Made by a program: the position numbers and the translations under genes | Shown: positions 5,501-62,209 of the stretch, piece after piece | Layout of the letters: every line of letters begins with the position of its first letter | How positions within the stretch are numbered: the first letter of the stretch is position 1 | The notes under the pieces: generated by a model | What the model was told of the DNA's origin: nothing | Seen by the model: only the letters and a program-made list of their open reading frames with translations | Database searches by the model: none | Source of the DNA: Tubulanus polymorphus | Taxonomy: Eukaryota; Animalia; Nemertea | Assembly (NCBI RefSeq): GCF_964204645.1 | Contig: NC_134029.1 | Coordinates: forward strand, 10,504,850-10,568,849 | DNA: 64,000 nt | Reading direction: 5' to 3'

Positions 5501-8500
5501 GAAATAGACAAATCCAAGTAACATACAGTTGTCCGATCAGTATTTATTTGTCTGTGCTTCAGAGTAGAATGACATGCTTGTCAAAGCTACCCTTTTGTAG
5601 GGAAAACTGTATGGCCGGTGAGCATTTCACAGTTTGGTCAGCGAAGAGTAGTCTAGTGTCAGTCTGTTAATTAATTAATAAGTAACAGACTGACACCAAC
5701 CAAACTATCAAACATCAGTCTGCTAGTTACCGCTGAGTTCTAGACACCAAACAAGTCCATGCCTTCATTATTATACAAACATTATAACCATCGATAATCA
5801 ACACAAAAGAGAGATAAAACGATATTGATATGAATAACAATACTACAATACATTGAAAACTAGAAATTTAGGATATAATGTATTATAAAATTGAATGAAT
5901 TACTGAAATAAAAATCCAATATTTTCTAAAGGAATGTCCGGCATGACATCACCCCCTTGGCCGCAAATCTTTCCTCCGGAAAGATGAGAAGATTACAGTG
6001 ACTGGCCTCGGGCAATTCATAGCTAAATTTTGGCGTAAAAGATGATGGAGGAGTTACATGACCTTGATGAGCAACAACGATATGAGTACAAAAAGGCATA
6101 CAAAATATTTTAGGGATAGTTTAAATCTACGTGGAATATTAATGGTTTTCCTAGAAAGGCGATTCGTAACTTCCATACCGTCAATATCAATATTGAGCTG
6201 AAGGCCATAGAAACCAGTGGGTCTTAAGTTAGATATACGATGGGGCATTTTGATATCCCAATATAGTGGACATAAGGGCAAAGAGACCATTTCCAATGTG
6301 ACACAATGTATTCCTGATGTGATTTCAATATTAATCTTAGTATGTTGATCTGATTTCACATAAAAACAACTTAAACAATATGTTCAGTAATAATAGAAAA
6401 TTAATAAAAACAGTGACGTACACAATAATCTCAAGTTTCTCGAAAACGTCAGCAAATGTAATGACAGGCTTGTTAGAAGGTTTTGGTACATCATAAATAA
6501 AAGCGGGCATTTTCTGATTTCGATGGCAATGGTGACCCGCAGCTGCAGATGGTGAGGTTAATGATGTGAAGATCGTAAGCATAAGTAGTGCAGTCATCAC
6601 AGTTTAACCTGCAAGTTGAATACGGTTCTTCATTATTTACCAATGGATGGATGTGTTTGGTTAGAGGATTGCGTATTTCTCAAAACAACAAGCACAGGTT
6701 GAAAAAAAACTAATAAATATAGCTGCCAAGCAGCGATGACGGGTTTTCTGCAAAGCCATTCAGAATGATGGGAATTGTAGTAAATTGAAATATCGATACA
6801 TAGAATAAAATGCATTGACAGATTCGAACCTAATATGCTGTGTAAACGCTAAATATGATTCAGCATTGAAACCGAACATACGCGGATGTACAATCACAAA
6901 TATTAATTTATTTTACCAGGCATTTATTTTGGCATTCAAACATCATGATACTGTATTATCACCATGCTTAAAAATGGATCTGTCCTATTAAGAACTCATC
7001 TTAAGCACCTGCTGAGTCGATAGATTGAGTGAATTCACAGATAAATAGATTTAAGAAGTTAATGTTTTTATTGAAATATTTGAATAAATACATATATTGT
7101 AGTGTAGATTCAATCAATAAATTATGAATTGATCTGGTCTGGGTTTCCGGCTGATGTTGATTTTGGCTTTTATGGATTACAAATTCTATAGTGATTAACA
7201 ATTGATACCTGCAACATGTGTGTAAATCAAACCTATTCCACTAGTTGCGTGTGTTTCCTAATAAACGGGAGAGTCACTCTTGATCCGAGTTATTAGAAAA
7301 ATAATGTTCATTTAGTTATAGAAATTCATTGCCTTTTTGGAAATTTTGTAATAATATTTGTTCTGCCCTAATTTTTATTACTGTATGAACCAATGATATG
7401 CTTCGTAAATATGATAATAATTAATAATAAATTTGAATTTGAATTAAATTTGAACATGAGAATCAAGCATAACTTGTGTTTTTTCAACTTGTATTTTGTT
7501 AACAGTTCCAGAGTTTCAATTACAATCAAATCCAAATTGGCTAAAAAGTACATAGGACTTAATGAAATGAACCGTTACTGCAAACCTATTCCAGTGTTAT
7601 GTCGATCGTGTTGAATCACTTTCCTTGAGTTGAAAGAATCAGATCTTCTATGGTGCAACATCGGTCGAAGAGAGATATCTTGGTGTTGACTGTCCTTGAC
7701 CATCTAACTTCATGCATTTGACATTGGAATCAGCATCATACCCATTTGAACTGCAAAATATTCATACAACATGAAAACCTACATTACATGTATACAGTAA
7801 TCAAACTTTCACCGATGTTGGATATTTGAATGAACGTTTGGCTTATTTCAGTATTCTAAAGCAGGAAATAATAAGCCCAATAAATAGGCCCTATTCCCAT
7901 TGGAACAATTTTATAATGCGTATAGCAGCACTTATCAGTCAAGTATGGAGAAATCGGTATACCAAACCTACGAACAGCAAAATGAACAGGCCTACAATGA
8001 TTTCTGGTATACAAGCCGTGACCACATGAACGTTTTGGTTTGACTATTAATGTCAGCAGATCAGAGAAGGCCTGGCCAAATTTAATCACATGGCTCAAAT
8101 CAATTAGCCTTTCTGCGTGTGAATACTTCACTATATTGTTTTAAAAATAGGCCTATCGAGTGAATTAGTACAAAGACTGAATTAGACTTTAGGCTAGTCC
8201 TGACCAAATCCTATCCATGTTATAATTGCACCAGTTATAGTAACATCACTGTAGGGCCGACGAGAGGGAAAAAGTTGTGTTTGTAGTACATAGGCATGGT
8301 AGGCTTGTCGTACTCCCTTAATACTTAAATTGCTGTTGTTACCTGTACGTGACTGTACGGTGATTTCTACAGGTTAGCCGTATGTGAGTACGTTGATACT
8401 CAGACTTGCAATATTGGGATTCGAAACCAAACGAAAAAAAATCCAGTTGTAGTCCAGTGATTTACCCACCGTGCCACAGAACGTAACTGCAGGGTGAATG

Positions 8501-11500: not shown

Positions 11501-14500
11501 AATGCGCACGGAGTATTTGTAGATCGAAGTGAGCTGAATGATATCAGACGGATTGTATCGGCAACAGCAGTAATGTAAAAAAGCCTATGTACTTTTGACA
11601 AAAAAAGTGTGGAAAAAAATAATAATAATAATAATAATAAATATAGCTGCAAAGCAGCGATGACAGGTTTTCTGTAAAGCCATTCAGAATGATGGGAATT
11701 GTAGTAAATTGAAATATCGATACACAGAATAAAATGCATTGACAGATTCGAACCTTAATGCAACCACTGTGTAAACGTAAAATATGATTCAGCTTTGAAA
11801 CCGATCATACGTGGACGTACAATCACAAATATTAATATATTTGACCATGCACTTATTTTGGCATTCAAACATCATGATACTGTATTATCACCATCCTTAA
11901 AAATGGATCTGTCTTATTAAGAACTCATCTTAAGCACCTGCTGAGCCGATAGATTGAGTGAATTCACAGATAAGAACGAATTATGATTTAGAATAGATTT
12001 AAGATATTAATGTTTTTATTGAAATATTTGAATAAATACATATATTGTAGTGTAGATTCAATCAATAAATTATGAATTGATTTGGTCTGGGTTTCCGGCT
12101 GATGTTGATTTTGGCTTTTATGGATTACAAATTCTACAGTGATAAACAATTGATACCTGCAACATGTGTGTAAATCAAACCTATTCCACTAGTTGCGTGT
12201 GTTTCCTAATAAACGGGAGAGTCACTCTTGATCTGAGTTATTAGAACTAGGGGTCCAGGGACACCATGCCCACTTGGGAAGTGGTTCCAAATGCTCAACA
12301 ATCTAACAATTCAGGTATCAAAGGTATAAAACATCCCTTTTCAAAGAATACCCATCACAAATTGCAATGAGAAATGGCAAACTCAGAATTCGGGCCAAAA
12401 TTGACATTTTTGGGCACTAAAAAAGGTCATAGGACGGCCATCTTGAGTCCGTATCCCAATTTTTGTTATGCTGATGGGCCTAGGGGGCATTCACATATAT
12501 CCGAAAGATCAAGGTTATTGATCAAAGCATCTTCAAAATTTCCCTCAAAAAGTTCAAAAATGTGTAAAAAGTGTTGATTTTGGCGAACAACAATAGCTGC
12601 CAGTCGGCCATCTTGATTCTGACAGGGCCAGTTTTTGAGCTGAAGATGTGTCTAGGGTAGATACATGTGAAACCCAAATATCAAGACATTACATTGAAGA
12701 GTCTTCAAAACTTCCTAAACTAACTGATTTCCGTCTACGGACGGACGGACGACGGATGAAAAGTGAACGCAATAGCCCGCTGGGACTAAAGTCCCAAGTA
12801 GGCTAAAAATAATGTTCAATTAGTTATAGAAATTCATTGCCTTTTTCGAGTTTCTGTAATAATATTTGTTCTGCCCTAATTTTTATTACTGTATGAACCA
12901 ATGATATGCTTTGTAAATATGATGTAATAAAATAAATTTGAATTAAATTTGAACATGAGAATCAAGCATAACTTGTGTTTTTTCAACTTGTCTTACTTGT
13001 CTTTTGTTAACAGTTCCAGAGTTTCAATTACAATCAAATCCAAATTGGCTAAAAAGTACATAGGACTAAATGAAATGAACGGTTAGTTACTGCAAACCTA
13101 TTCCAGTGTTATGTCGATCGTGTTGAATCACTTTCCTTGAGTTGAAAGAATCAGATCTTCTATGGTACAACATCGGTCGAAGAGAGATATCTTGGTGTTG
13201 ACTGTCCTTGACCATCTAACTTCATGCGTTTGACATTGGAATCAGCATCATACCCATTTGAACTGCAAAATATTCATACAACATGAAAACCTACATTACA
13301 TGTATACAGTATTAATCAAACTTTCACCGATGTTGGATATTTGAATGTACATTAGGTTTATTTCAGTACTCTAAAGCAGGAAATGATAAGCCCAATCAAT
13401 AGGCCCTATTCCCATTGGAACAATTATATAATGCGTACAGCTGTACCGTACACTTATCAGTCAAGAATGGAGAAATCGGTATACCAAACCTACGAACAGC
13501 AAAATGTACAGGCCTACAATGATTTCTGGTAATACTAGCCGTGACCACATGAACGTTTTGGTTTGACTATTAATGTCAGCAGGTCAGAGAAGGCCTGGCC
13601 AAACTTAATCACATGGCTCAAATCAATTAGCCTTTCTGCATGTGAATATTTAACTGTATTGTTTTAAAAATAGGCCTATCGAGTGAATTAGTATATAGAC
13701 TGAATTAGACTTTAGGCTAGTCCTGACCAAATCCTATCCATATTATAATGGCACCAGTTATAGTAACATCACTGTAGGGCCGACGAGAGGGAAAAAGTTG
13801 TGTTTGTAGTACATAGGCATGGTAGGCTTGTCGTACTCCCTTAATACTTAAAACGCTGTTGTTACCTGTACATGACTGTACGGTGATTTCTACGGGTTAG
13901 CCATATGTGAGTACGTTGACGCTCAGACTTGCAATATTGGGATTCGAAACCAAACGAAAAAAAATCCATTAGTAGTCCAGTGATTTACCCACTGTGCCAC
14001 AGAACGTACTGGTGGGTGGATGAAATTTGATTTACAAATAGCCTAGCCTCACCTAACCCAAACTCTATTCTTTTACGCATGCGCGTTTGCAGATTACAGG
14101 AACTCAAGTACAGCGTTTTTAGGGAACTCACGTATGGTTAACCTGCGGATATCACCGTACAGTCACGTACACGTTACAATTTCGTACTTAAAATGGTATT
14201 GGCTACTAGGAACTCACGTACGGTTAACCTGTGGATATCACCGTACAGTCACGTACGCGTTACAATTTCGTACTTAAAATAGTATTGGCTACTAGGAACT
14301 CACGTATGGCATTATATACTTAGTAGGGACCTCACGTACGCGGTTAACCTGTGGAGATCACCGTACAGTCACGTGCGGTTAACAACTACGTACTTAAAAT
14401 GGTATTGGCTTCTATATAATAGGCCTATGGACAAATAAATACCGGTAGGCTTTCTTATAATCTTAGCTTCCACACTTCACAACCGAACCAATTGACCAAC

Positions 14501-17500: not shown

Positions 17501-20500
17501 CTTGATCTTGATCTTGATTATATACGTCGAGTATCCTTATAAGGCGTATAACGACGGATGAGAGAGGGCGTGCGAGGACGTTAAAAGTGTCTTCCTATGC
17601 CTTGTTGGAAGGCGCAGGAATCGCTGGCAGAGGCGATAGCCTCTTCTAATTGGTTCCACTCAGCGGTAGTACGCACAAAAGAGTTTTTGTACTGGTCTTT
17701 CCTGCTGAACGGCACTTTAAAGCACATAGAGTGATTGAACACTGTTCTCTGTACTAGATTTGTAGCTTCAAACTCTCTTAGATGTCCAGTTTGTATTTTC
17801 CTCCTGTTTGCGCGAACTCGTTCCAGAAACTGGTCAGGTGGAAGTGCCGGTACTAGACCCCCAACAATCTTATACATAAGAATAAGATGAGATTTCTTTC
17901 TTCGAGTTTCTAGTTGTGATAGGTTTTACGAATCGAGCGATGTGATACACATCCTGGATTATGAGTTGTGTAGTCTCTAGTAGTGAATCTAACAGCCTGG
18001 TGTTGGATGCGTTCCAAACGATCAATGTCACTTCTATAATGCGGGTCCCAGACGACTGCTGCGTACTCTAGTTTCGATCAGACAAGTGCTAGGTATGCCA
18101 TTCGTTTACAGTTCTCTGGGGCATAGCGCAAGTTTCGGCGTAAGAATCCCAGAATAGAACTGGCCTTTGCTGCGATAGAGCCAATATGTGCATTCCATTT
18201 CAGGTCCTCCGATAACAAGACTCCTAGATATGGGCTGCTGGTGACTCGCTTAAGTATCATGTTGCCTAAGCAATAGAAGTATTCTGACTTAGCACAGATA
18301 CTGAGTATGTTACATTTCTTGGCATTGAAGCTCATACCCCAGTCATGTGGCCATCGTTCAAGGCTTTCTAGGTCCTTCTGTAGCGTAATGTGGTCACTAA
18401 ATGATCTGATGACTCGGTAGAGTAGGCAATCGTCTGCGAAGAGGCAACAAGCAGGGTGGGGAACAAAGTCGAAAGCCTTGCTGAAATCCAAAATTGCTAT
18501 GTCTACTTGCTCGTCTGAGTTATAGGACATAGTTAAGTCGTTCACTGTTGTAAGGAGTTGGGTTTCACATGAGTGTCCTGCTCTGAATCCATGATTTAGG
18601 TTAGTTAGAATTCTGTTTTTCTCAAGGTGACAGCGAAGGTGGCTGCACCCTTTTTGAGCACCTTACTTGGTATGGAGGTAAGAGAAACTGGTCTCTAGTT
18701 CTTGGCTAAGTGGCGATCTCCATTTTTAAAGATGCAAGAAACATTCGCTGCTAACCAATCTGACGGTCGCACACCACTATCAACCGATTTTTGGAAAATC
18801 TTAAGCGCTGGTGCTATGTGATCCGCACATTCTTTAAGTATAGCGTTTGGTATGTTGTCCGGTCCAGTAGCATTGGCTGGGTTTAAATCCCGGAGTAACT
18901 TGGCTACTCCTTTCTTTTCGACCGTGATTTCTGATATGGCGGGGTGGCGCTTACTTGATGTCGGCGCTGGTAAAGGTGAACCATCGTTCCGTGTAAAGAC
19001 GGATTGGAATTGTTCCAATAATATCCTGGCCTTCGTCTTAGGGTCGCTGTAGAGTTTTCCATCTTTTTTTATGGGGGCCACACCTACACAGTCCTGTCGT
19101 TTACGTTTCACATAGTTCCAGAACGGTTTAGTATTCTTTTCTCGAAATCCTTTTTCGATGGTATTGTTTACATAGTCCCACTCTGCCTTCCTCATATCAC
19201 GTCTGCACTCTTTTTGAAAATGGTAGTAGTTTTTCCAGCTGTTGTGTTTCTTTGCCTTGTTATAGAGTCTTCTTTTCCGGCGAAGCAATTTCCTGACATT
19301 ACGGGGCTGAGCGGGTACTACGCACGCTTTTTTTGGTATATGTTCGTCACACGAGGATAGTAGGCCAGTGAGACCACAGAGTATTGGTATCAGAATACTG
19401 GTCGTACATTTCACTTATTGAACGTGCAATCTTTGTTAGGTCTTGATACTACGTGGTACTGATAATATGTCTCGGTGCTTGGCTTAACATGTTGTGGTTT
19501 GATGTTTACATCAGTAACGGTCATTACATGGTCGGCGATGCCTGGTACTGATTTGATGCTTTAAGAAGCGATGGATTTGACATGAAAACAAGATCCAGTA
19601 TGTTTGACTCTCTTGTCGGTTCTCTATGGATCTGAGTTATTTGGTTCTCGGAGGAAAGATCCAATAAGAATCTTCTAACTTCACGCTCAGAGCACATGTC
19701 TTATTTTATCCCAGTGTCCCAATCTATGTTTGGGCAGTTGAAATCGCCTGTGAGTATAACATGTTTGGGGTTTACGGAGCTGATTAGTAGCTCTAAGGAT
19801 TTATTCAGCTCATTTAGGTATGTCATAATATGCTGCGGCATGTAAAAGGAGCTAATCCATCCCTAATCTCAACTTTACACCATAGAATCTCACAGTCAGT
19901 CGATAGCTCAGGCCTGATCTCAGACACGAGGTGGCTGTGGACTAGGATGAATACTCCACCACCTCCCTTGTGTCGATCCTTTCGATAGACAGTGTAGTCT
20001 TTTGGAAAAATTTCGCTAGAACCAATCGAGCCATCAAGCCATGATTCCGTGCCACATACGATGTCGGGTTCCAGACACTTGACACATGCGGTGAACTCAG
20101 ACCATTTGTTTACTATGCTCTGAAAGTAAGCGGTTATTATACGGATATTCTGTTTTGGTGGTGCGTCAAAAACCGAGTCATTTATATCTGTGTGTGGAGC
20201 TCTAATTCGCTGGTTTGAGGTATGCAATTTCCGGTCATTATCACTGACGCTCCGGTGGCCTCGACTATCCTCCTTTTGTCGATTTACATTTCGACTGCGT
20301 TTGCTATCCCGGTGTATAATCGGACTGCTAGCTTTGAGTGGGCTGAAGTCGAGGCTTGACGTGACTGAGTCGATTGTTGCATCAGATAAGAGGCTGAAAT
20401 AGTTTGAACATTCCAATTCGTAGGTCCGAAAACTGAAACTGTCGCTGTTTGCACTGTCACATTTGAAGCAAAACCACAGCGCTGATGGTCTATTTAAGGC

Positions 20501-23500
20501 ATCATAGCTAGCGGAGTCCAGCTCGTAGTGTTTCATGTTCAGGTCGTAGCTAGGATTTGATATGGATTCAATATGAACCATTGTGTAAATTTAGGAAAGT
20601 CTATATTAAGAATTTTGTTTCTTGTTATACAGTGAACCCCGCATAAGTCGTCATTGAATTAGGCGTATCTTCACATATCTCGTATAATTGATTTAGTCAC
20701 AATTAGGATCAACATTAGGATCAGTGTGGCCGAGCGGTTAGAGCGTTAGTCTGGGAAGCCAGGTCGTGGGTTCGAACCCCGTACATTGCCGTAGTGTCCT
20801 CGGGCAAGACACTTATCCTCATTGCCTCTCTCCACCCAGGAGTAAATGGGTACCTGGCCTGATAGACGACTACTGAGCGTTTGTTAGCAGCTCAGTGTTA
20901 CTTCTCCCCAGGGAGAGATGACTGATACATGTTAGAGTATAAAATTGGCCGGGGTAATAATATCGAAAATGTAAAGCGCTCTGAGCAGCCTGGCTGGATT
21001 TAGCGCTATATAAGACACATATTATTATTATTATCATTAGAATTTTCTTCTTTAATCTTTATGAAATTATGCTTATAACTTGTACTTCATATGTTGTATC
21101 AATTTTAGAAGCCAAATTTTCTGATTCCATTCAAAATACATCGCGTAAGTCACATCGCAAAATGCCGGCAGCAGATAAAAAAATACGCTACAATATTGTC
21201 AGTGTAAGACGTGTTCAGACAGTTACAATGTAATTATTTTGTGACGTTGTCTGTGTGGTGCACGTGACAGCTTTAATTGATTGATTGAGCGATATAGGAT
21301 CTGCTCATTATATGACCGGGAACATGACAAACCATGCTGGATTCTGAGCGTCGTATATAGCCGCGATCACACGAGCATTTTTGGCCCTGGCCAAATTTTG
21401 CCGTTTCACACGGGTGCCAAATAAGCCTGAGCCTGTTTCGCCCAGGCCAAATTTGGCTCGACCAAAAACGTCCGACCAGGCCTGAGCCAAATTTTACCAC
21501 CAGACAAATGATTGCTTTTGATTTGCAACTGATCCACTTCGCTTTGTTTGAGCATTGTTATGTATTGAGTGAATGGTTTGCGTGTCAGCGCACTCTCTAA
21601 TCAGGCAAGGGCCAAATTTGGCCTGATCCTGATACGTGCCAATTTGGCCTGGGCAAAATCGTGTCCGTGTGATCGCGGCTTATATCGTATATTCCACGGG
21701 TTATTCGTATAAAACCATGACTTACAGATAACTTGTAAAAATACATCTTACACTTAACTCGTACATGACGTAAGTCATAGTAGAATCGTCAGTCCCGAGG
21801 ACTACGACTTATTTGACTGTATTTACAAGCTTCCTAACAATTTTGGTAATAATTTTTTGATAATTTTTAGGATAGTAATAGATATTCTGTTAGCTCTTGA
21901 TGGCACAAATTGTAACCACTGGATATACACAGCTGTTATTTTGTCAAAAGGAAGGAAACAGGGGTTGGAATTTTTATAGAAAAGTTCACATATCAGCTCT
22001 CGGCCAGTTGGAAGGACTGGGAAAATATATGCAAAATTACAATGAATTTTTCCCCATTATACTCATTGATACTTGACCTTGTTTCATTATAATTTGCGAA
22101 GAACTTCAGCATCCAAGTTCAATGTAGGAGCTGAAGGGCTTTCCTAGTGACACCATTATCAAGAACATACATATAGAACATAGTGTTGATTGTTCTGCCA
22201 TGTGCTAGTGAGTCATGAAGAATGCCCATTTCCATGTATATCATCAAAAGATGATCTGGTTAGCTTTCTCTCTCCTTCTTTAATGTAGCCTACATCAGTA
22301 TCCCTCAGAAATATAATCATTACTCCGGAAGAGTATTTGTATTTTGGAAGGTAATGACTATTTCCAATGTGGCACATCCTAATTCGGTGACAATCAGCAT
22401 CTTATGCATTATGGGACAAGCCCTGAATTATTGCAGTTAAAATGCGCCGATGAATGCTTACTAAGAATCATCACAGTGTATATAAAATATCTGAAAGCGT
22501 CCAGAATGTACGCGTGTGGCAACATAAGTATGCCTATATACATACATACATTCCTACCGTTGCCACGCACGTGTCTGCAACCGATCGACAAAATTCATAA
22601 ACATCATAGTATATACGAAATCACAGTGTTGCAATCCCTCGGCGCTCGCAATTTTGTCGGCTACGCCGTCATCTGGTTTGCATGTGTTACTCAAGAAAAA
22701 ATACCGCAGATTTAAAGGTCGGCATTCTCATCCCTGCAGCTAGAAGCATCAAATTCAATTCAATTTCATTCAGATTAAAACGAGCAAATTCAATTTGATT
22801 TCAATTTGATTAAAGACATCAATTCTAATTCAAGTTTTGTTCAGTATAAATTAATCGCAAATGATTGAGATGAAAAAAATAATTAATTGTAAGCATTTGT
22901 CTCTGTTATTTAAAGAATCAAAATTGTACTATGTTAATTAAAACAGGAGCACAAGAGTGCATGACCTTTAGTTAAATCTTTGAGCATGATTTTCAATTCA
23001 TAAACATAGCTGGAAGCAGCAATCACAGATTTGACTAAAAAGACTGTAGGTGGTTCGATTTAATCAAAGAGCTTCTCATATTTAGGGTTTATACTCGTTT
23101 TAATATCGAGTTTGGTTTGACACAACAAACATAAAATGCTGACGTGAAATAAAGGTGATCCTTATCAATTAAATGTAGAATTTGATTGAACACTGAACTT
23201 AAATTCAGTTCCTCTCAAAATATTATAGAATACAAGTTAATTAGTTGAACTTTTTGAACTTTGAACTGTTTTTGCCCAATATAACCTAAATAATCACTAA
23301 AAATCGTATATATCTAAGTTCTGAAGTGATCGAATTCTTGTTGTATAGCAACCAAATTATTGTCTGGTTGCCAGAGGAACGAAGCTCAGAGGGACGAGAG
23401 GTAGAAGCTAAAAATAACAATATTTCATAGATGTAATATAATGTATATCTCTGTATTCATTTTAACTAGTTCACGGTGAGTTCCGGAAATCGACTGAGGT

Positions 23501-26500
23501 TTCAACCCTAGTTTGGGTCCCCACATCGATTTCCCCAACCCACTGAACAACAACGCTGATTGGTTGAACACAGGCAGAGCTCGAGCCCTGATAGGTCAGC
23601 TAGGGTCACCTAGGAACCCCAAAATATAAAGAGAACACAAACTGACAGATACACGTCTTTTGATTACTCATTGTTAAAATAGTTCCGGGTCTCAACCAGA
23701 GACAATACAGGAGGAGCCGCCGGGTCTGAGTATGAGCAGAGACAGGCGTTGTCAACTGCCATACTCAGAGACCGTCACAAACTACATAATTAATAAATCT
23801 AGCTTGTGATACAATAAAATTTTACATAATCTAAAAACTCAGATATCTTTTCCTAAGATGATTGCATACTAATATTTCGATACGATTAATAGATATAATG
23901 AAAATAATGATTATGATATAGAAACGTACTTATAAAATGATTATAATATGGACCGTCTCAATCCGATTTGTTACATTCTCCCCCACTATGTTCTTCAACT
24001 TAAGCATGTATTGCTAAAGTTGAAGAGGTCAGCTACAAAAACAGTTTGTTTTTTTTTTTTACTATACAAGTATCCGACTATACAAGGTTTGGACATAATA
24101 CATCGAAATCGTGTTTTTTTTTTGTACTTCACCAGAGGTGAACACAATACATCATATTATATTTTGTTGTCAAATACCATGTTACAACGCTGTATACAAT
24201 ACTACGAAAATGAAAAAAATGATTACATATTACATCATATAACACGACAGAGTTAAGTATTACGAACCAAATCAATTTAATCAAATCCGTCCTGCGACAG
24301 TGTCGGTAAGGTTAGTATACTAACTAAACCAACATGGGTAGAAAAATGTACCGTAAAATTTCTTGTAGCGATAATCTTACGAGCCTTCTGTGCCTGCCAT
24401 ACAGACACCGGAAAAACGGAGGGAATAGACTAAACTACAGATATAAGTTTATTAATGATTAATTAAAATCATTGAAACAGAAGTGCGACTTAGGGCGAAA
24501 AGTGCCATGGATAGCTAGTCTATCTACACCTGCAGGGGGTTGTATAACCAAAAAATGTGGACAGAGGTCTAGATCAATTAAACGAACAGTAATGCAATTG
24601 GTTGCATTAAAACTGGTCATTAAAAGAGGGGAATGACGAGATGATTGGCGATATTGGAAGAAAATAACTAAAAGGAAGACACTCATCATTAGAACTAACA
24701 AAACAACCAAAAGACTTAACCCACTAGATATATAGTGAAAGTAGTCCTCCAGATCGAAGGGTGACACCGTAGAGGAGGGTACCTGTTGTTGGTAGTGGAA
24801 CCCACTTAGTTTCATCGCTTGCACCGGGCGCGCTATTGATAATGCAGTTAGGGAGACAGCCATTGCTTTATGGCTGAACCAGAGTTTGACGACAACGAGA
24901 CACAAGATTACCGAAAAACCTACTGAACAAAAGAGAAGAATACTGGTCCAGTCAGTAAATGAAGGAGATATGGAGATGTCCCCTGAAGCAATAGATTCTG
25001 CCAAGGTCCTTAAAACTCTACGGTCTGACTTTATGGATTTAGACAAGCGTCGCAAATTGAGATGTCATCATCGGCGAATAGTGCATTCATCGAATGATTT
25101 TACAAATCAAAAAACGGAATAGAAACAGGAACGGGTGCAGATTGAATCGTAGATCCAGAAAGGTTCGCGTATAGTTCTTTCGGGAAGAAAGACTGAATGA
25201 CCGCTATGTTAACCGGATGTAATAGAATCAATCGTGTACTAGGTTTGCATGAGTTTAAACGAGGTCGAAGCTGCATAGTGCCAGAGGAGAGGCGACATAA
25301 ACAGGGGACTGATATGACGCAAAAGTGACACCCGTTAATGACTTTATCTGAACCACAAGATAAGGAAAGTTTAGAAATCTGGTACACTAGTACCTGAGAT
25401 GGGGTAAGTTCCATGAGTGTCGGCGATACGGAATCTAATCGCACTCTGAAGTCACACAGTCTTGCAATGTTGTTCTTATCTTTGAGATACAGGGCGGCTG
25501 AACATGACGGGTCAGTGAATGATTTCAGTGGCAAATTAAATGGACATTGCAACGTGCCCCCTACAAGAAGGCAAGCTTGGCGATCAACCTCATTAAAACT
25601 GGTGGAATACTGACTGTCAGCTGTCGCAGCGAAATTAGAAAGCAAATCGAGCAATTGAGTCGAATGGCTCGAAGACCCATTAACAGGAACCGGGAAGGTG
25701 CGTATGTTAAAAAGTTGTAACGTCTTAGACAATAAGCTGAGTGGAAAGCGAATGGTAACATATAGATTAGTGCCGTTTCTGGAGTAGACAGGAACAACGT
25801 TTTTGTATATAGACGATGGGGATTCGCTAGTTAAAGGGAAACTCTGAAACTTGGTGACGAGGATAGCGTTTATACTATTGATGGAATCTCTAATGACCTC
25901 CGCATTAATCTGAAACTGAGATCATTTTCCTTCAACAAGTTAGTTAACCACCTCTTTGAATTATAAAAGCTGTAGTTCGACTTCTTGACTGGCTTCGACA
26001 TGTTTTGTGTAGGTAAGCGGGTAGTGCTACGCGCAAGTTTTTTTTAGGTCAATTGAACTCGGGTAAATAATTTTGAGATAGGCTGATGATTGCTCTTAAT
26101 ACCCTTAAACGCAGCATCCGTACGTTTATTAATGAGTTTCGCAAAAGATGATTATGGTGGCTGATGAGGGCCATCGTGAAAAAAAAAACACGAATATGCA
26201 CAGAGATGCTAGTTTTCCAGAAATATCCGGAATTCCGGAAATTTAGGATCGCCGATGTCAATTCCGGAAATTGGGTGAGAATTCCTCGCAGCGACCAGTA
26301 ATGGCACGGACCGTAAAAGCGTTCGTTTGATTGTACTCGTCGTCGCTTCTGTGTTATTTTATCTTGGTTTCTGTTTCCGAGGACGTTCTGCTACAATGTA
26401 TATAGGTGTGCTTGTTGTGGTATCTGTGCGTGCGTAGGCGGAGCGCCACTGTTGTGACTCCATTTCCAATTAATAGTCAAATCTTTACGCGCCGTTGTAC

Positions 26501-29500
26501 ATCGTCCCGCTGACGGCCAACAATGTGAAGATGCACGTGGTAATAATTAAGATTATATTTAATAAATATCATCTCAATTATTAATTATGTCCTGAGGCAC
26601 GCAGCTTTGTAACTTTCTTTTTACCTGCAGCTGTCAAGCGGGACGGTCTGCAAAATGAGCACGCACGGAAAGATTGTCAGTCGGGAGTCGGCCGATATAA
26701 AGGCAATTGACAGCGGTATAAAAAATAAATTTAACTGGCACTGGCTAGAGTATAAGGACAGTAACGGGGACTACTTATCGAACTACATTCGTAAGTTAGA
26801 CTTAGCTGGCGTGGCGTACTGCGTCGTTTGTAAAGACCAGGTCAAATACGGTAGTGGCGAGAAAAAAGATATTCTTCGTCACCCGGATAGCGCGCGGCAT
26901 AAGAAGGCAGCGAGGGGTGTGAAGCACAACGAATGCCTTCCGTCGTATTTTCAGATGGAAGATGCCGATCGTGATACTGCCGCTAGTACATCGACACAAG
27001 GAAAAGTATCCGTCCCGTATGGTGCTGCTCCGCATATTGAAAATGTAGTAACAGTTACCGAGACCACCCAGATCGCTCTAGAACGCATCTCCGGCGGGGA
27101 GGGCCTCCAGACCCCCTTTCTAAATTCCGGAATTTTGGTACTTTGGCCCTAGCATCTCTGTATGCAAATGAGGGCGACATTACGACAAAACGACAAAACC
27201 AAAATAACGCGACAAAACAATTATTTTGGTTTTGTCGCCCGCGACAATTCAATATTTTGGTTTTGTCGCCCGCTACAATTCAATATTTTGGTTTTGTCGC
27301 CCGCAACAATTCATTTTTTGGTTTTGTCGCCCGCGACGATTAAACTTTTTGGTTTTGTCGCCCGCGACAATTCAACTTTTTGGTTTTATCGCCCGCGACA
27401 ATTCAATTATTTGGTTTTGTCGCCCACTTTATTAGCTTTTGAATAATGAGGCCAATTAATAACGGAATGAAGACTTACGCTTTCGCCTATTTTGAAGTCG
27501 ATTAATCTGATATAGTGTCGATTATTAAGGTCATTTTGGCAGATTCTTTTTTTTAATAAAGTGATATTAAAGCGATCATTCAAGTGATCCTACTTAACAA
27601 AAGATCACATATTATTTCTTTTTCTAAAGATGTACGGAAGCTTATATGTACGGAAGCGATAAAGGGCCTCGAGTTGTCGCGTTCAAACTCGCCAAGTCGC
27701 CATATTTATGTCGATATATCGCGTCAAGTTGACATATCGTGACGTTTTGACGACATATTTCGTTTTCACGACCTTCGTTTTCCTCGCGACAAGTCGACAA
27801 ATTCATGACGACTTGAAACTCAATCCTCATATCACTGTCGTCCTCATCTTACATTTCGACGTGTCTTCAAATGACAGCTTGTCCCGTGGAAAATGGACGA
27901 AAAGGCGAAATTTGTCGTGAAAACGTCACGATATGTTGACATATTCATGTCGACTTGACGCGATGTATCGCGATCTATCGACATAAATATGGTGACTTGG
28001 TGAGTTTGAACGCGACAACTCGAGGCCCTTTATCGCTTCCGTATATATGGGAGCCGTACAAAACTGTTGCGACCTTTTATCACGACGAAATTATGTTGAA
28101 AAAACGTGATATATCGCGATTTTTCGACATAATTAAGTCGATATATCGTGTTAATATCACGATAAATCGTTATACGGATCACGCCTTTCACCAATGTCGA
28201 CACCAACATAACCGTACCGTGGACATAATTATCACTACTTTAGCAAATTGTCGCGGGCGACAAAACGTAATGTCGACCTCATTTGCATATTCGTGTTTTT
28301 TTACAATGGCCCTTATCAGCCACCATAGATGATAGATGGTTACCATGTTGGTTAAAAGCATTTGACAGTTTTTGAGTGCGAGCGTTCAAAGAGTTGATGA
28401 TGTGACGAGCTAGTAACTCGACATCGTCTAGGATGGCAGTACCAAACAGCGATCGCAATAACGACCCATTGAAACCGAGTGGAGCCCCTCTCTTGGAAAG
28501 CGTTTGGGACTCGGTTGAGAGGCTTCAGGGATCAATGACTGAACTTTCTCATTCACGTGCAAAATGTGAGCATTCACCCGACGCTGTCACTCATTCATAT
28601 CTATAGCAGCAGTGTTGCGTAGTTGGCATGTGAGACTAGATCCATGACACTGAAAAGCGAGCTAAATTGATGGGTTGAGGAAGTACAATTTGATAGGTAT
28701 GTGCCCAGAATTCATTTGATTGTCCCACTCTGCCTTCTCTTGACGTTGGCCATCATCCGTTGCAAGGGCTGGACTAAAAAGCATCACCGCACACATTATG
28801 AAGAATCCGAAATGAGAGACGTTCCAACCTAAGAAAGAGAAATATGATACATAGGAAAAGATACAAGGATTGGTTAAATATGATACCTCGGGCCTTGAGG
28901 GATCTAGCACAGCAACCAATGAGCCTCAGCAACGGTCCTATTAAGATTTCGATCTAAAAACTATAACGTGAACAAGTGATACAGGAAATAGAATCGGCGC
29001 AACGGAGTACGGGGCAGAGAGAACAATCAGTGGACAATCAGTGGCTCTAGCGTTTAAGGCATTTAGGTGGTTGGCGGTGTCTAAGCCAACCGGCTCGTGT
29101 CCTCAGTCTATGGAACTCGTTTCTCACGAAATCACTTATATAAGTCTCGGGCTCCCACATCTTCTCATTGTATTTAGTCCAACTGACTAAATACTGTCGC
29201 TGCCCGCTACGGACATGGACCTTAAGCAACCTTTCGACCTCATAATATATACCTTCGTCTGGCAGGTCCTGACCCCGTTGGTCAGATTGTTGCGACCCAG
29301 CATCAGGTGCTTGGATAACGGGATCTTCCGCCGGTAGGAGTTGTGGAAATTGCAGGCAGTCGTTTAATGTCTTTAACCTCATAGCGTTTACCAGAGACGG
29401 ATATGGTCGATCGTCGCTACAGCGTTTGATTGTGTATGTATGATTTGGACCATTTTCAGGGATATGATAAGGACCCGCCCAAGTAAGTACTAATTGTTTT

Positions 29501-32500
29501 GATTTCCCTTTCTGAACACGATGATATGAAACCATCACCTTGTCTCCTGGTTCATACAAGGGTGTTTTAGCATTGTGTCGCTGATCGTAGTTCTGTTTAT
29601 TTTTGTCCTGCAGGATCTTCATATTTTCATTGGCAATCTTTTTAACAATCTGTAAATTTTGTTATATATTCTCAATGTGAGCTTTTACAGCAGAGGGCAA
29701 GGCTGGCTTGGGAGTCAATGACGTATCAATTGGTTGCAACATTTCCTTGGCAAATAGAATATGAAATGAAGAGAACCCTGTCGCTTGAACAGAAGGTGTT
29801 GCTCGAAGAGCCATAAATACTGTCGGGAGCGTTAAATGCCAATCAGTTTGGTCCGTACTACAATCAGACTTCCGAGCAATAGTCTGATTTTGCCGCTCAC
29901 AAGTAGCATTTGTTTGAGGATGATAGCTACTAGTCATGTGACGAGTCACCTGAAACAATTCGCACACAGCTGAGACTAATGCCATCATAAAGTTTGCTCC
30001 TCAATCACTAATTAGGGACCTCGGAGCACCGTACCGAGCAATAATCTCTGAAAATAGAATGCGAGCAACCTCAGTCTCTCCTTGAGTTTTGAGCGGGAAC
30101 GCTTCCACCCATCGCGAATAACTGTCGACAGAGAGTAATATATACCGATGACCATCCGTAGTAGGCGTAAGGGGGCCTAAAATGTCCATGTGCCATCGTA
30201 TAAATGTGTCCGTTATAGGCATGTTAGTCAGGCCGGGACGACTTTTGTGAGTCGGGTTTTTATTCTGCTGACATATATGACAAGTAGATACATAGTTGTG
30301 CACATCCTGTTTCATACTGGGTCAATGGTATTTCTGAAGCAGGGCCTCGTATGTTTTCTCTTCCCCTAGATGACCACCACCAGCGGCTGAATCATGGTAA
30401 GATATAAGTAGGTCCAGTTGTAAGGCTTTAGGAATTACTACCTGGCTTAGTATTCTGAGTTCTGGGTCGACTTTGCGGCCACGGTGCTGATAATCCCTGT
30501 GAAGAATTCCATTGTTAAGATGGTACTGCCAGGCTGTCATAGAAATTTTGCGAGCCTCTTTCTCATCCAGAGGTAGTTTACTGTCTCACAAAAATTCAAT
30601 CATGGGCGATGTCTCACTACACAAACTTTGAAGCTTTCCATTCTGTTGGCTGGTTGAGCCTGTGCGATGGACATCACTCCTTGCACTAAGTCGTTGTAGA
30701 AAAATTCATGTTCTAATAATTTGACGTCAGAGAGTGCGCTCACTGAGTTTATGTCTATCGTAGACTGATATTCGACTGAGCTAACATTGCCCAGTAGAGA
30801 TTCATCGTCCAAGTTAGAGGAAGGTTCTTGTTCTGATACCAAAGGGGAGCTAAGTGTCATTGATGGAGTCGAACGGATGGTTATGATATCTTCCGGTATA
30901 CGTGTATCTAAATCAGGGAGTTAGTTCTTAGAGATAGGAGCGTTTACTGAGGGGTTGACCATGTTGTTTGTGAGGCTGGGGTCTGGAGTAAGCTCATTCA
31001 ATGGTGTGAGGTCCGTTGGTACCAGGCTCGGATCAGGAGTTCTGTTTTCTGGAGAATCGGAGGGTGACTTTCAAGGCGACGTAGAATACTCAACAACATG
31101 CTTACCATGCACACAGCGTAGCCAAACCAGTCTTTGAACTTAGATGACAAATAGTCCATAGCTACTGAGCGACTACCCTCCGGTAGCTCTACCGATAAAA
31201 TATGATCTAGAGTTTGTACGTCATCACAGTCGTCCACGACAGGGATTTGTGATCCGTGAAAACCGTAAATTTCTTAGGTAGTAGATATGTACGAAACGTT
31301 GCCGGCTACAATAGCGTAGCATTCTTTATCACACATTGGCCAATGTTTCTGTTGCTCAGATAATGCTTTACCCCATAGCAAACAACTCTCTCTTCTCCAT
31401 CATTGTCTTTTTTACCTAGAATAAACCCAATCGCCTCATCGCTAGCATCGTAAGTTAAGATAAATTCCCTATTAGGGTCAGGGTACACTAGCACAGGTGG
31501 CGATTGAAGTGCATCTTTCAATTGGTTTAATGCATCCTCACACGCCTCTGTCCAGTGAAACCTAGACTCTTTCTTAAGGATATTATTCAGTGGAACTGTC
31601 ACATAAGCATAATTATGAACAAAACGTCGATATAAATTGACTAAGCCTAAAAAAGAGCGAACATCTTTCTTAGATTTTGGTCGGGGAAACGATCGAACAG
31701 CCTCCGACTTGGCAGGATCCGCCTTGATACCCTCACTAGTGAAAATAAACCCTAAGTATGGTATACTGTTGACTGCGAATTTGCATTTCTAGGGCTTAAG
31801 AGTGAAGTTTGCCTCTCTTAAGCGATCAAAAACTAATCTAAGGTGTTGTAGATGCTCCTCGAAGTTTTTTGTGGCTCTCTGACTGAATCCTAAATATCCA
31901 CAAACCTGGGGAGTAGGTAATTTATCGGCTTAGTTACTTGATTTAATTCACGGAAGTCAATAGCAAATCTGAATGTTCTGTTCTTTTTCTTTACCATCAC
32001 CACTGGAGCGCTCCAGGGTGAAGTCGAGGGCACGATAAGGTCATTATCTAACATTTCTTGGATTTGTCTATCCTGATCCTCACGAACATCCTTAGTTTGG
32101 CGATAGGACCGTTGTCGGATAGGTGGCGTATCACCGGTTTCATTTACTTAAACTAAACTTCTAATGATACAATTCAACTCATGCATAAAGTTTTGATGGG
32201 TCTCACGTGAGTTCCATTTTGTGTCTTTTCCCAACGCCGGTATCTTGAACAACGACGATGTCACCAACCTGTAAATCAGAATTCTGATGATGTCACTTTG
32301 ATATTTCCTGCAAAGAAGTTATGTATAGCTTTTGGAAGTGCTTCCACACATATTCAGTTACAAATTTGACTCGTTTCCAGCGAGCTCTATAAATATCATT
32401 TTCGGCCATTAAGCTGGTGTCAGTTTCGACCGTAGTTGAACCCATTAAATGATTCGGGATATTGGCAACTACTGTTGTGTCTTCACATGACGATGTGGTC

Positions 32501-35500
32501 AGTGTCGGCTGTTCATTATCCAGCACCGCTCTCAGCTCTTCTTCAGATAGTGTCTATCTATTTATCCGTCCATACATGATCTTTCGCACGGACCTGATTT
32601 GTCTCGAAGTAGCCTCCCATGTGGCTAGACAGTAGTGGGTTAAATTTCCATTCCTTGTCATCTTTTATCAAATCTTCCTCAATCAGTTCATATCATGTAA
32701 GTCTTTTAGCATTTTTCTTTACACGCTTCGATCAAGTTTGTACCATTGTTGGACCGTAATATTTTCAGTCTGCCTAGTCTATTAACAAATTTACTTATGG
32801 CTAGTAAACAAGACTGGTTATCCAATCTATGCTCTTACTCAAGGATCGCTCCTGTAAAATTACATGAGAACAACACTCCATACCGGTTCTCTTCACGCCG
32901 TCCTTTTGTCACCCGCAACGGTCCCAAGCAGTCGATACCCGTATTTACGAACTTGTGCAAAGCTGCGGTTCGGACTTTTGGTAAGACTCCCATCTACTGC
33001 GTTTTTAACTGTGTCTGCAGGCTGTTGTGATCACTTTTCGTCCATTGTCTGTCCGTTCAAGTGTTTCCATTAGTTCGTCTGTAGACAGAATCCAGTTATT
33101 TTAGGAAGACGTATCCATGAATTGTCTTCATATATGGTTCGTATATACTTGATTTGGTTATCTACCAAAGATACATCTTCAACCCAAACATTGGCCTCAT
33201 CAGCATCAATATGGCCGCCTGGTGGCAATTGTTTTTTCGCCAGATTTTGCACTTTTTGCAGATTTTTCTGGTTTTGTTGCATAACTATATATACGATGTT
33301 ATAGTTCTTTCAACTTGCACTTCATTTTCCCAGTTTACTCTGTTATTAGATATAGCTTTGTAACTTGCTCAGTCGGTCTGAAATTTGCTGCGCTTTCCTG
33401 AGTTTGTTGAAAGAAAGAATGAATTTATTTCTGAAAGAAGTTGAAGGAATTCTGTAGAATAATAATTATATTCCCGCCTGATGTCATATCGGGATATCCC
33501 TTGACTTTACGCACTGATATGGCTGTGGTGATCGCACTTTCTAAAAAAAGTAATTCATACTCGTTGAAGTGTGCCGCTACTAGTTGTATTGTATTGTAGG
33601 CCTAGAAATATCTTCCGATGAAATTTAATTCAACTATATTGAACTAAAATTTATGCATACACCCATGGTTTTCTTGACGAAACGTTTGTATTGATATTCA
33701 GATGAACTCTTAACAATATGCATTAAAAACACCATACAGTTGGACCTATATAGTTTAGTATATAATGGAATTCGATCCCGGTTTTTGATGCAGCTTACTC
33801 GCAATGATCCTGCCTCTGGAGCGTGGGTATCGTGATGTTGACCTCTGCGTCTTACTTGGACAACGTCATGACACTAATGCCGGCTGTACACTAGCATCAA
33901 TGCTACCACAACAAAGCTGCTGTGGCAAATACCGGTGGCATTGGCGTGCCAAAAATCGTTCCCCGCAGACTTTCGACAATGACGCTGCTATCCCGTTCTG
34001 TGCTGCCACTTTTATTGATCATGTGGTCTATAGAAAATGGCGTCGCCTAATGCAGAATTATCTTGTTCCGATAGTGAGGATGAGGAAGTGCTCCTTTTGT
34101 CTTATTATTGCTCCAAAAACGATGAGGATGGAGAGCTAGCTATAAAAAATAATGGTGCCAGTCTTGGATTGCCTGGAGGTTGCAACAGGGGGCATCTAAC
34201 AACTTTGTCAAGAAGTTAGATGTAGTATATCCTGCACAGTTTCGGGCTTTCCACCGAATCATTTCATCACATCCTGACTATGGTTGGACCATTGATTTCA
34301 AAGCAGGATACTGTTTTAAGACCCTTGATGGCAGCTGAAAGACTCACTGACTCTTTGTTTTTTAGCTACAGGTAAAGTGATAACTTCATCTTCAGAAAAT
34401 GGAAAATAATGTTAGGCCACACGGAGAAATACCTTACTTTCTCATTAGTATCAGGCGCATTGGAAGCAATTTTTGATTGCTGCGGCCAAATGCTGATTTT
34501 GGACAGGTTCTAAATATTGCTGCGGGGAATTTACTTAATTTCCTCAAAAACATGGTATTCAAAGAAAAAAAAAACATCATTTAGTAAATTATTTCTGCGG
34601 CTTTAGCCGCTACAATCGCTGCACTTCCAACGCCACTGATTATTATCAGACTCAGCGCAGCTGAATCGATTAGTATTAACCGGAGTGTAGAATTCGTGTT
34701 GACGGCTATCTCCGCCGAGTGTGAAATGATTCATGAACCAAGGACTGCATTAAGTTGGCCCTTATGATGGCAGCTAAATGGCGACCGCTTTTGAAGGCTA
34801 TTAATTAAGCCTAGATTGGATAGATTCACAATTTTATGCAGTTTTTTTTTGGATTTTTAGCGATGTTGTGCGATGTCATCTTGATCTACTAACATAAACA
34901 CAACATGACCAGATTTCACAACATTTGCTCTCAAATTTACAAGTAGGCTTTCTATACATTAATGATACAACATACACAATTCTTCAATAAGAAAACTACA
35001 AAAGAAGATATAAAATTGACAAGGATTTTGCATTTTTCTTGCACTGTGCTGAAAATTTAATGTTGATGTGTGGCATAGTTTACACTATTTACTTTACTGT
35101 GGAGGTGTGATAATAGTGCCCTCGTTTGAGTAAGACGTGTAGCTCACCAAAATCAACGAAGCCGTTAATCTTTAGATAAAGGATATTTTCTTAGTAAAAA
35201 AGATTTGTTTGAGAATACTTGAACTAAAATTAAGTATGCATACGGCTGCGGTTATCTTGATGAAAAAAATGTTTTTATCGATATGCAGAGGAATTTTAAA
35301 CCATACTAATTTGCATTGAAAAAACACCATACGGTTGGACCAATATTGTGTAGTATAGTGTAGCTGTTGATGGCGGCGTGTTACCTCAGGTAATAGTGGG
35401 GTAATGTATACACCCCTGTACTATCTAACTGGTTTTGAATGAAGCTTATACACCCTTCTCGTAATATGGCACTATACCGCGGCAATAGACGGAACTAACC

Positions 35501-38500
35501 GGAAGTGATGTCATATGGTGAGCGAGTGTTACTACTTCGTTCGTAAATCATTGTGTTTGAGGCGCTATTCAGAAGTGATTTATGCTCCTTTCATACTAAT
35601 CGGATGGTACAGGTACGTCATGCAGCAATCCATAGATAATTTGGAAATCGGTGCATTAGACTGCAGAAAACCATTACTTTAATTGAATATCAGATAGGCC
35701 TAGTTAAACACCGACTAACAATTCAATTCAATTTTATTATTCAACAAAATTACAAGCAGTATAATGGCTAATAATCCATCTCTACTAATCGCAAACGAGC
35801 GGGATAAAAATAACGAATATTTGATAGACATAGTTATTATTTGGGTAGTGCCAATGTCTAGTTATTATTTGGGTAGTGCCAATGTCTAGTTACAACTGAT
35901 AAATCTACCCAATAGTCTATTTGGGTAGAGAAATGTGCTGGTTTTAAAACATTTCTCTAAACAACTCTTGGACTTTGATATCTTTACTCAGTTATATTTG
36001 TTAATTCATATCGGTAATTATTTCAGCTTTTTTGTGTTTATTTTTTGCAGTCATGGATAACCATAACTACAGTATCGGTACCGCTAGTCTGCATGAACAG
36101 AAAAACCCACCACAGCAAGATCGTGGTTAGGATGACAGTGGCGAAAAACATCTGAAAACTTTCAAAAGAAAAGATTCAAAGGTAATTAGTTATCAGTTAC
36201 ATGAGACGTTAACATCCCTAGGGGGGGCGACTTTCAAATTAATAGGTGATACTTTCTGTTTTCACAAGGCTCACTAAAACTTGAATCATAACCGTTTGTG
36301 TATTTAATCTTTTTAGAGTAACAGAACCTGCTCTGTACCGTACTGCACAAGGTCGGGATATTATCTTGTTGATGGCCATGGCACAGTTTCGTATTTTCTA
36401 TTTTCAAAGGACGCAGATATGCGAAAAAAGTGGATAGTCAGCATAAAACGAGACGTTGGACAGTATTTCACCATAACCAACAATACTTTGGTGTGCTCGC
36501 TACATTTTAAGAATACTGATCATCGTGACGTTTCAAAATTCTCAGGGCGTCGATATTTAAATCCAACTGCTGTTCCTTAAGTATTTTCATGCTGGGAAGG
36601 CAAAACCCTCTATACCGGTACAAAAGAAAGAAAGTGAAATAAGCCGATGTTGTGGCGTGACAATGTTCCATCTACGTCATCTGCTAATTCTGGTACTGAT
36701 CCAGTAGATTCTGATGTCGTCATTATCAGTAGTTATCGAAGATGAAGTGAACTTGCAACAACAATTGCATTAGACGACTACGAGAAACTGTTACAAATAG
36801 TATCCAACCTTGAAGAGGAAAATAAGAACTTACAGGCTCATATCAAATCATGATATTTGCTGGTACTGACTCAGCATCACATAAAAAGGCTCGTCCCTTT
36901 GTTTTGTCACCCACAAACCAGTTTTTCTTGTTTTTGATGAGGGTGAGGCTTGGTCTCATGGAATTGGACTCGGCCTACAGATTCACAATATCTGTTGCAA
37001 CAGTGAGCAGAATTATCATAAGATGGGCCAATTTCTTATATTTAAAACTTGGCACGCTTCCAATTTGGCCTAGTAAGGAGCAAATAATTAAGAGCGTGCC
37101 TATTAGTTTTAAACAGAAATACCCAAACACCCGTGTTCTTATTGATTGCACAGAAATTAAATGCGAGATGCCATCATCATTAGTTTTGAAATCAAAAAGC
37201 TATACTTTGAAAGGACTTATCGGGATTAAACCAGCTGGGCATCTAAGTTTTGTATCACAATTATACACCATTATTATTGTTATTATAATACAATATTTAT
37301 ATAGCGCCTTAATCCAAAAATGGCTCTAAAGCGCTTTACAAATAAAAACATTAAGCTAAAAACATCTTACAAAACATTTAAAACGTGCACATGAAGAATT
37401 TAGTTAAAATGTCTGGTGAAAAGTTCAGTTTTAGGATAAGTTTTAAAACATTGTAGTGATTTGGCTGATCTGATGTGGATAGGTAAAGCATTCCATAAAA
37501 CTGGTGCAGAGCAAGTAAAAGTACGTAAACCATAGCGCTTAGTTCTAAAAATTGATTAGATGACCGTAAATTACGTGCTGGAACATAGACAGATATCATT
37601 GATTTTATATACTCCGGTGCACTGTCATTCAAAGCTTTATATACATACAACAAAATTTTATATTCAATTCTAAAATGAAATGGAAGCCAGTGAAGTTTGG
37701 CTAGAACAGGAGTAATGTGGTTCCTTTTACTCTCCATTGAAATAATTCTGGCAGCAGCATTTTGAACTCTCTGTAATTTACATAGCAGATCAGAACGGAT
37801 ATCATATAAAAGAGAGTTAGCATAATCTAGCCTAGATATAACAGTTGCCTGGACTAGGGCTCTACAAGCATCCTCTGTTAAAAATCTCCTAATTCTACTA
37901 ATATTTCTCAAATGAAAATGACAGGTTTTAGAAATGTTTAGAACATGCTTTTCCATTGTAAGGTTCCGGTCAAAAATTACGCCTAGATTTCGAATGTTAT
38001 GAGAAACATTGGCACTGCAAGGTCCTACCTGTAATGACAGATCTTTGCAAAGATTGGTCATTGCCCGAGGACAAAACACAGAAAATTTTGTTTTATCATC
38101 ATTTTGCATAAGGCCATTGCTAACAAGCCATGGTTTTAAATCACGTAAGCACTCTTGAAGTTTCACAATACCAAGATCAATGTTTTCAAGCTTAGGCTTC
38201 GCAACAACATAGTCCTGTGAGTCGTCAGCATATAAATGATACATCAAGTCTTGTTTTTTGAAAATATCTCCAATCGGGCCTGTGTATAAATTAAATAATT
38301 TAGGTCCTAGCACAGAACCTTGAGGAACGCCAAACTCAACCACTTTCTCAATAGATGGATGATCGTTAACTAATACACGCTGGGTTCTGAGAGTACGACC
38401 GTAGCCAAGACAGCGCAATATCAGAAATACCATAAGAAAAATTCAACCTGTCTAAAAGTACATTACGATCAATTGTATCAAATGCTGACGACATGTCAAG

Positions 38501-62120: not shown

Positions 62121-62209
62121 TAATATACCGATATATATGTTATATTTTCAGCTTACGGCAAGACCACTTGAACACCTGTCATCCCCAAAAATAAAAATGA
62201 TCCTCTTAA

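Follow-up and report, generated by a model that had tools for sequence, protein, structure and literature searches.

A predicted membrane-tethered, matrix-like domain in the env frame of Gypsy elements, with a decayed copy in the nemertean Tubulanus polymorphus

A predicted second product in the env frame

A stretch of 64,000 nucleotides from the nemertean Tubulanus polymorphus (NCBI RefSeq assembly GCF_964204645.1, contig NC_134029.1, positions 10,504,850 to 10,568,849 of the forward strand), here called the window, carries on its minus strand a decayed Gypsy element with RNase H, integrase and chromodomain, followed by env (Pfam scan of the window). In this element and its relatives the env frame appears to encode the fusion protein F and, behind it, a second membrane protein; we lean towards the view that the domain at the end of the latter is a tethered matrix, which would gather F and capsids and drive budding. 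The second product is conserved in a known group of elements and is apparently undescribed. We note that the env copy in the window is dead and that the proposed mechanism applies to the family, for which reason the predictions were made on natural relatives.

A sequence-only reading of the window had described, after the F anchor, a second signal peptide, a polar spacer, a second transmembrane helix and a conserved domain of ~120 residues ending near 24277. All of these features are present on the minus strand, but the domain is interrupted here and its halves lie in two frames: the frame 25064-24459 (-) carries the end of the F stalk, the F anchor (first transmembrane helix, TM1), the internal signal, the spacer, the second transmembrane helix (TM2) and the first half of the domain, and then stops. 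The end of the domain was placed correctly (stop at 24279-24277); its length is ~105 rather than 120 residues.

Conservation among natural relatives

A phmmer search of 1.84 billion representative proteins gave 100 relatives of the extension at E<=0.001, 20 of them at E<=1e-10, most of which align from the anchor through signal and second helix into the domain, so that the extension is not a chance reading. Thirty are 740-864 residues long, and those with names come from bivalves and abalones (Mytilus, Haliotis, Ruditapes, Mya, Tegillarca, Crassostrea). Alignment A1 comprises 93 of the 100; excluded are six that stop short of the domain and a repetitive match of 1658 residues. The domain is indeed present in natural uninterrupted copies, and no Pfam family covers it, in keeping with the earlier supposition that it is not a described env domain. 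With respect to F, Pfam Baculo_F is passed by 8 of 29 full-length relatives, the family profile matches the fusion protein 9w4d among PDB sequences at 7e-15, and RxxR is found in 69 of 79 envs.

Since these relatives had been selected by the extension, a second search was made with a profile of the 29 full-length envs, its candidate words being drawn from the first 500 residues of env. It yielded 78 matches; 71 are new, and 65 of these extend to the ectodomain's end. The domain is present in 53 of these 65, nearly whole in 50. Of the 12 without it, inspected by eye, 11 are either spliced gene models or sequences truncated within, or a little beyond, TM1 or the internal signal; the remaining one, the distant protein P0186, closes with an ordinary anchor and a short tail, and has no domain. 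Mean pairwise identity in the 29 envs is 30.6% in the ectodomain, 19.6% from signal through spacer to TM2 and 26.6% in the domain, and the distances in ectodomain and domain are correlated (r 0.49; 0 of 2000 permutations as high).

Env follows the chromodomain in the genomic relatives L001 and L003, the latter also having gag and pol (Pfam); in L002 no Pfam match lies upstream of env and the chromodomain was not detected. In L003 (4744-9612) gag ends in a stop beyond which pol continues in the same frame, suggesting readthrough. The env of L003 as well as P0131, P0165 and P0208-P0211 are filed under bacterial symbiont bins (Sedimenticola, Ca. Thiodiazotropha), most likely through contamination with host DNA.

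Internal signal and topology

The topology was assessed on 88 aligned rows, with the cleavage site judged by a count of the -3/-1 rule and not by SignalP. TM1 has a family median KD19 of 2.31 and is followed by six residues with on average 2.3 K/R and no D/E. After a basic loop of four residues comes an 8-residue hydrophobic stretch with KD of at least 1.5 in all 88 rows, and in the polar region past it 76% carry A/S/G at offset 20, where the VQA of the window (offsets 18-20) falls. A -3/-1 site lies within a three-position window in 72 of the 88 (shuffled mean 21.7, maximum 34, 1000 shuffles), the pattern expected if, as had been suggested, signal peptidase releases a second protein. The segment reaches a KD19 of at least 1.6 in only 2 of 91 cases and is thus too weak to remain in the membrane as a helix. 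The spacer (median 32 residues) consists of S/T/P to one third; TM2 has a median KD19 of 2.63, and the net charge after it exceeds that before it in 88 of 88. By these sequence rules, cleavage of env is very probable; its products would be F and a type I protein whose domain faces the cytosol.

Predicted fold of the domain

In structure models of natural relatives, a predicted matrix-type beta-sandwich spans the whole domain. Borna disease virus matrix protein (Borna M) is the best match in all five PDB structure comparisons, although with middling Z, and matrix proteins of four virus families take the top ranks in independent structure searches. The bornavirus-type matrix guess of the sequence-only reading has therefore held at the level of fold. 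No sequence-level match for the domain was found in PDB sequences or Pfam, and the structural alignments show 11-18% identity. The net charge of the domain is +3 in the median and positive in 100 of 128, and its basic helix is conserved (at least three K/R in 54 of 70). Judging from these models, mononegaviral matrix ancestry is probable.

Other assignments were rejected. The domain is not a coronavirus M or ORF3a, since the stretch from the predicted cleavage site to the domain holds one helix and not a three-helix bundle. Nor is it a member of the mononegaviral matrix proteins proper: it is not the soluble product of its own gene but stands in frame with env behind a transmembrane helix, and is for this reason called matrix-like.

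Proposed mechanism and alternatives

The single frame reads as signal, F ectodomain, TM1, basic 4-residue loop, 8-residue h-region with a -3/-1 site, spacer, TM2 and a domain of ~105 residues. Following sequence rules, the internal signal would be cleaved, which would leave F with almost no tail and yield, 1:1 with F, a type I protein with an outer stub of ~32 residues and a cytosolic domain. The latter, for which one beta-sandwich of mononegaviral matrix type is predicted, would by analogy oligomerise under the membrane via a basic face and link the envelope to a Gag without a folded matrix domain; in some members a terminal YPxL would recruit ALIX/ESCRT. We infer a matrix or budding role, with the domain probably lining the particle and bringing about its budding. 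A positive membrane face is common to Borna, paramyxovirus and pneumovirus M oligomers (PMC3887258).

In p9 of equine infectious anaemia virus YPxL serves as the ALIX-type late domain, and late domains are carried by filovirus and rhabdovirus matrix proteins (PMC8402826). YPxL occurs after the domain in 13 of 69 tails, against a shuffled mean of 0.51 (maximum 4, 2000 shuffles) and an expectation of 0.16 based on the remainder of the proteins; in the second search set it is present in 3 of 50 tails. The enrichment over shuffles is ~25-fold; on a quick tree the motif is scattered (11 changes) and clusters no more than shuffles do. Its presence in 16 of 119 tails is at most suggestive of late-domain budding. 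By eye, six Gag N-termini (five from predicted gene models) have no MG start, and ahead of their capsid domain lies nothing but low-complexity sequence.

Two side observations concern the same regions. A cysteine cluster, possibly a site for zinc or acylation, directly follows the domain in 11 of 69 tails (P0036, P0045, P0046, P0050, P0054, P0056, P0063, P0074, P0088, P0093, P0101), and at the start of several Gag N-termini stands a short basic motif of type [YF]xLRS or TRS.

Some data weigh against a tethered cytosolic matrix: YPxL is absent from 103 of 119 tails and from the copy in the window, the domain has two near-invariant cysteines, and 73 domains contain 67 sequons (shuffled 50 +/- 6.6). 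It is conceivable, if unlikely, that architecture and ancestry are as described and the job has changed, the domain now being a tethered chaperone or trafficking factor of F or an antagonist of host defence that forms no lattice. The many tails without YPxL would fit this, as would the modest net charge, the root mean square deviation (rmsd) of 3.2-3.6 to Borna M and the tails with a cysteine cluster instead. However, the excess and scatter of YPxL, the retained basic helix and a Gag that seems to lack its own matrix domain favour the tethered matrix.

We consider it quite improbable that the domain has an unrelated fold, such as a decayed 2H phosphoesterase comparable to the RNase L antagonist of rotavirus VP3, and resembles matrix proteins through a common beta arrangement. 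At least two HxT/S motifs are found in only 7 of 128 domains, and the one conserved His is without a following xT/S. Moreover, in two PDB comparisons Borna M is ahead of Usb1 by 1.7-1.8 Z and of the first non-matrix row by ~3, and it is matrix proteins of four families that head the independent searches. That the internal signal is uncut or does not cross the membrane, env being one polytopic chain with the domain as a long tail of F or in the lumen, is very improbable: the short h-region, the cysteines, the small sequon excess and the simple cleavage rule would allow it, whereas the -3/-1 residues at a fixed offset (72 of 88), positive-inside charge after TM2 throughout, the S/T/P-rich spacer, the absence of a conserved sequon in the domain (best position 10 of 74, versus 21 of 29 in the ectodomain) and the YPxL tails, a motif that acts in the cytosol, argue for the cleaved form.

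A possible link to chu-like viruses

When the model of P0080 was compared with BFVD, the first 11 rows were long chu-like virus proteins, one of them from an unclassified Riboviria sp., with six at E<=0.001. With the domain alone, the first 11 rows comprised seven long chu-like proteins (TMq 0.45-0.57), three proteins named M (from two bornaviruses and San Jacinto virus) and a bornavirus protein of 134 residues, one row being at E<=0.001; the match is therefore independent of the helices. The best matches include A0A7U3NVC9, A0A0B5KT86, A0A455LK50 and A0A1L3KMZ8. We infer that the matched region is C-terminal in the chu-like glycoproteins, the BFVD output being without target residue ranges. 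Best matches for both models come from the long glycoproteins of Shayang fly virus 1, Taiyuan leafhopper virus, Hubei coleoptera virus 3 and hymenopteran chu-related viruses, which are assigned to Aliusviridae and relatives. In Viro3D, Aliusviridae are among the class I fusogens (PMC12583693). The ICTV profile for Jingchuvirales has GP, NP and L and no matrix (PMC10770922), and the long chu-like glycoproteins may hide the one that is not listed. In the atlas, the two feature clusters nearest to P0103 are F-like proteins of 839 and 897 residues, a length that leaves room for the same extension; the neighbour clusters are 60-76% viral, mostly Peploviricota among members with a record.

We give an even chance to an ancient one-frame cassette of class I fusion protein and anchored matrix, common to the Gypsy lineage and chu-like negative-strand viruses. 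Gypsy would then have captured a whole envelope-and-budding module from a virus of this kind; the matrix seemingly missing from chu-like viruses would form the last part of their glycoprotein, and the tethered form may be ancestral to the free matrix of borna-, paramyxo- and filoviruses, or may have had that matrix fused into it.

The decayed element in the window

The features of the window copy are collected in Table 1, with scores against profiles built from relatives. The pol part scores 4.6e-18 for RT_RNaseH_2, 2.8e-7 for rve, 7.4e-7 for Integrase_H2C2 and 2.9e-6 for Chromo, with the chromodomain at the integrase C-terminus (~29244-29128); reverse transcriptase-RNase H before integrase is the order in the window and in L003 (Pfam). 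Env is split by the insertion of a non-autonomous DNA element, in which a 31-nt unit stands seven times in tandem (27193-27469) and inverted arms of 80 nt lie at 27644-28048. No second copy of the long terminal repeat (LTR) was found in the 64-kb window. The homologue near 6 kb mentioned in the sequence-only reading is real and likewise broken; it is without the F part, in whose place another repeat stands (6703-7298, also at 11627-12246).

Table 1. Features of the Gypsy env region and of the second extension copy in the window (iE, independent E-value)
Feature	Position	Strand	Basis
Gypsy pol 3' part: RNase H, integrase, C-terminal chromodomain	29047..31788	-	many stops and frame breaks
F-type env 5' part, broken: signal-like start, basic cleavage and fusion-peptide regions	28318..28800	-	ectodomain profile positions 9-147, iE 2.3e-19
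~2.1-kb unrelated insertion splitting env; 31-nt tandem repeats, inverted arms	26165..28310	.	gap between profile positions 147 and 140-196; repeat families D5, I6
Remaining F ectodomain and stalk, three frames	24951..26160	-	ectodomain profile positions 191-508, iE 2.4e-90; 140-196 and 509-548 weaker
TM1, F membrane anchor	24888..24941	-	hydropathy
Internal signal peptide with basic n-region and short h-region, predicted to be cut after VQA; signal named in the sequence-only reading at 24863-24816	24816..24875	-	VQA at offsets 18-20
Short spacer, predicted luminal ectodomain of second protein	24720..24815	-	
TM2, anchor of second protein	24657..24719	-	
Matrix-like domain, first half; premature stop at 24461-24459	24459..24608	-	domain profile positions 8-56, iE 3.4e-9
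Matrix-like domain, second half (basic helix, conserved His) and tail; other frame; stop 24279-24277	24277..24459	-	domain profile positions 57-100, iE 9e-4
Polypurine tract then TG, likely 3' LTR start	23975..23987	-	by eye; similar purine tract and TG behind env in L001, L002
Second, divergent, broken extension copy: signal, spacer, TM2, domain	6061..6597	-	domain profile iE 2e-18 (6335-6111); middle profile iE 0.006; tblastn 3e-4

Upstream of the Gypsy reverse transcriptase, decayed integrase-like text of a different element (BEL/Pao-like by eye, 32400-33000, -) appears to replace the gag region. Two more decayed reverse transcriptase regions (18078-20590 and 37378-39061, -; Pfam RVT_1) are unrelated to the finding. 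Dispersed copies of one repeat family, in both orientations and with 154-nt units in tandem inside them, lie at 12241-12817, 43370-44623, 50193-51184, 57259-57830 and 60850-62122.

Comparison with known systems

The order of reverse transcriptase-RNase H and integrase, the chromodomain at the integrase C-terminus and the class I F-type env after pol are features of the chromodomain errantiviruses of molluscs, annelids and cnidarians, which likewise have a Gypsy pol with C-terminal chromodomain and then an F-type env (Chary and Hayashi, PMC13524379). The analysis there is confined to the ectodomain between signal and transmembrane helix, and in the main text 'matrix', 'budding', 'cytoplasmic' and 'jingchu' have 0 occurrences (figures and supplements, outside this count, may show extra helices). 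Nothing on such a domain appears in passages of PMC11122063, PMC13030845 and 10.1101/2024.12.15.628590, and a search that most subscription journals lie outside turned up no paper describing a matrix-like domain, whether in the env of a retrotransposon or in a jingchuviral glycoprotein. In the literature searched, a tethered matrix-like part is not described for such elements.

The closest structures, Borna M (3f1j) and the matrix domains of paramyxo-, pneumo- and filoviruses, are, like the fold predicted here, single beta-sandwiches, basic and similar in size, with 92-97 residues aligned at rmsd 3.2-3.7. Borna M represents the single-domain form and is tetrameric with a positive membrane face (PMC3887258). 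Mononegaviral matrix proteins are soluble and have their own gene, whereas the domain here is encoded by env and borne on a transmembrane helix. The chu-like glycoproteins, in which the signal and transmembrane layout would be comparable, are longer (1040-1235 versus ~780-860 residues).

Env-bearing Gypsy elements outside insects appear to be without a Gag matrix of the retroviral type, and a matrix delivered with env would explain how capsids contact the membrane and bud. It would be the first case found of a retrotransposon with the matrix fold of negative-strand viruses, and of that fold anchored in a membrane. The likely donor of the Gypsy env would be narrowed to chu-like viruses, and the location predicted for their matrix can be checked in public sequences.

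For both parts of the proposed arrangement there are parallels. Alphavirus E2-6K-E1, bunyavirus Gn-Gc and influenza C p42 are polyproteins cut by signal peptidase, and the env frame resembles them in that an anchor is followed by an internal signal which opens the next membrane protein. In coronavirus M, a membrane-anchored cytosolic domain serves as matrix.
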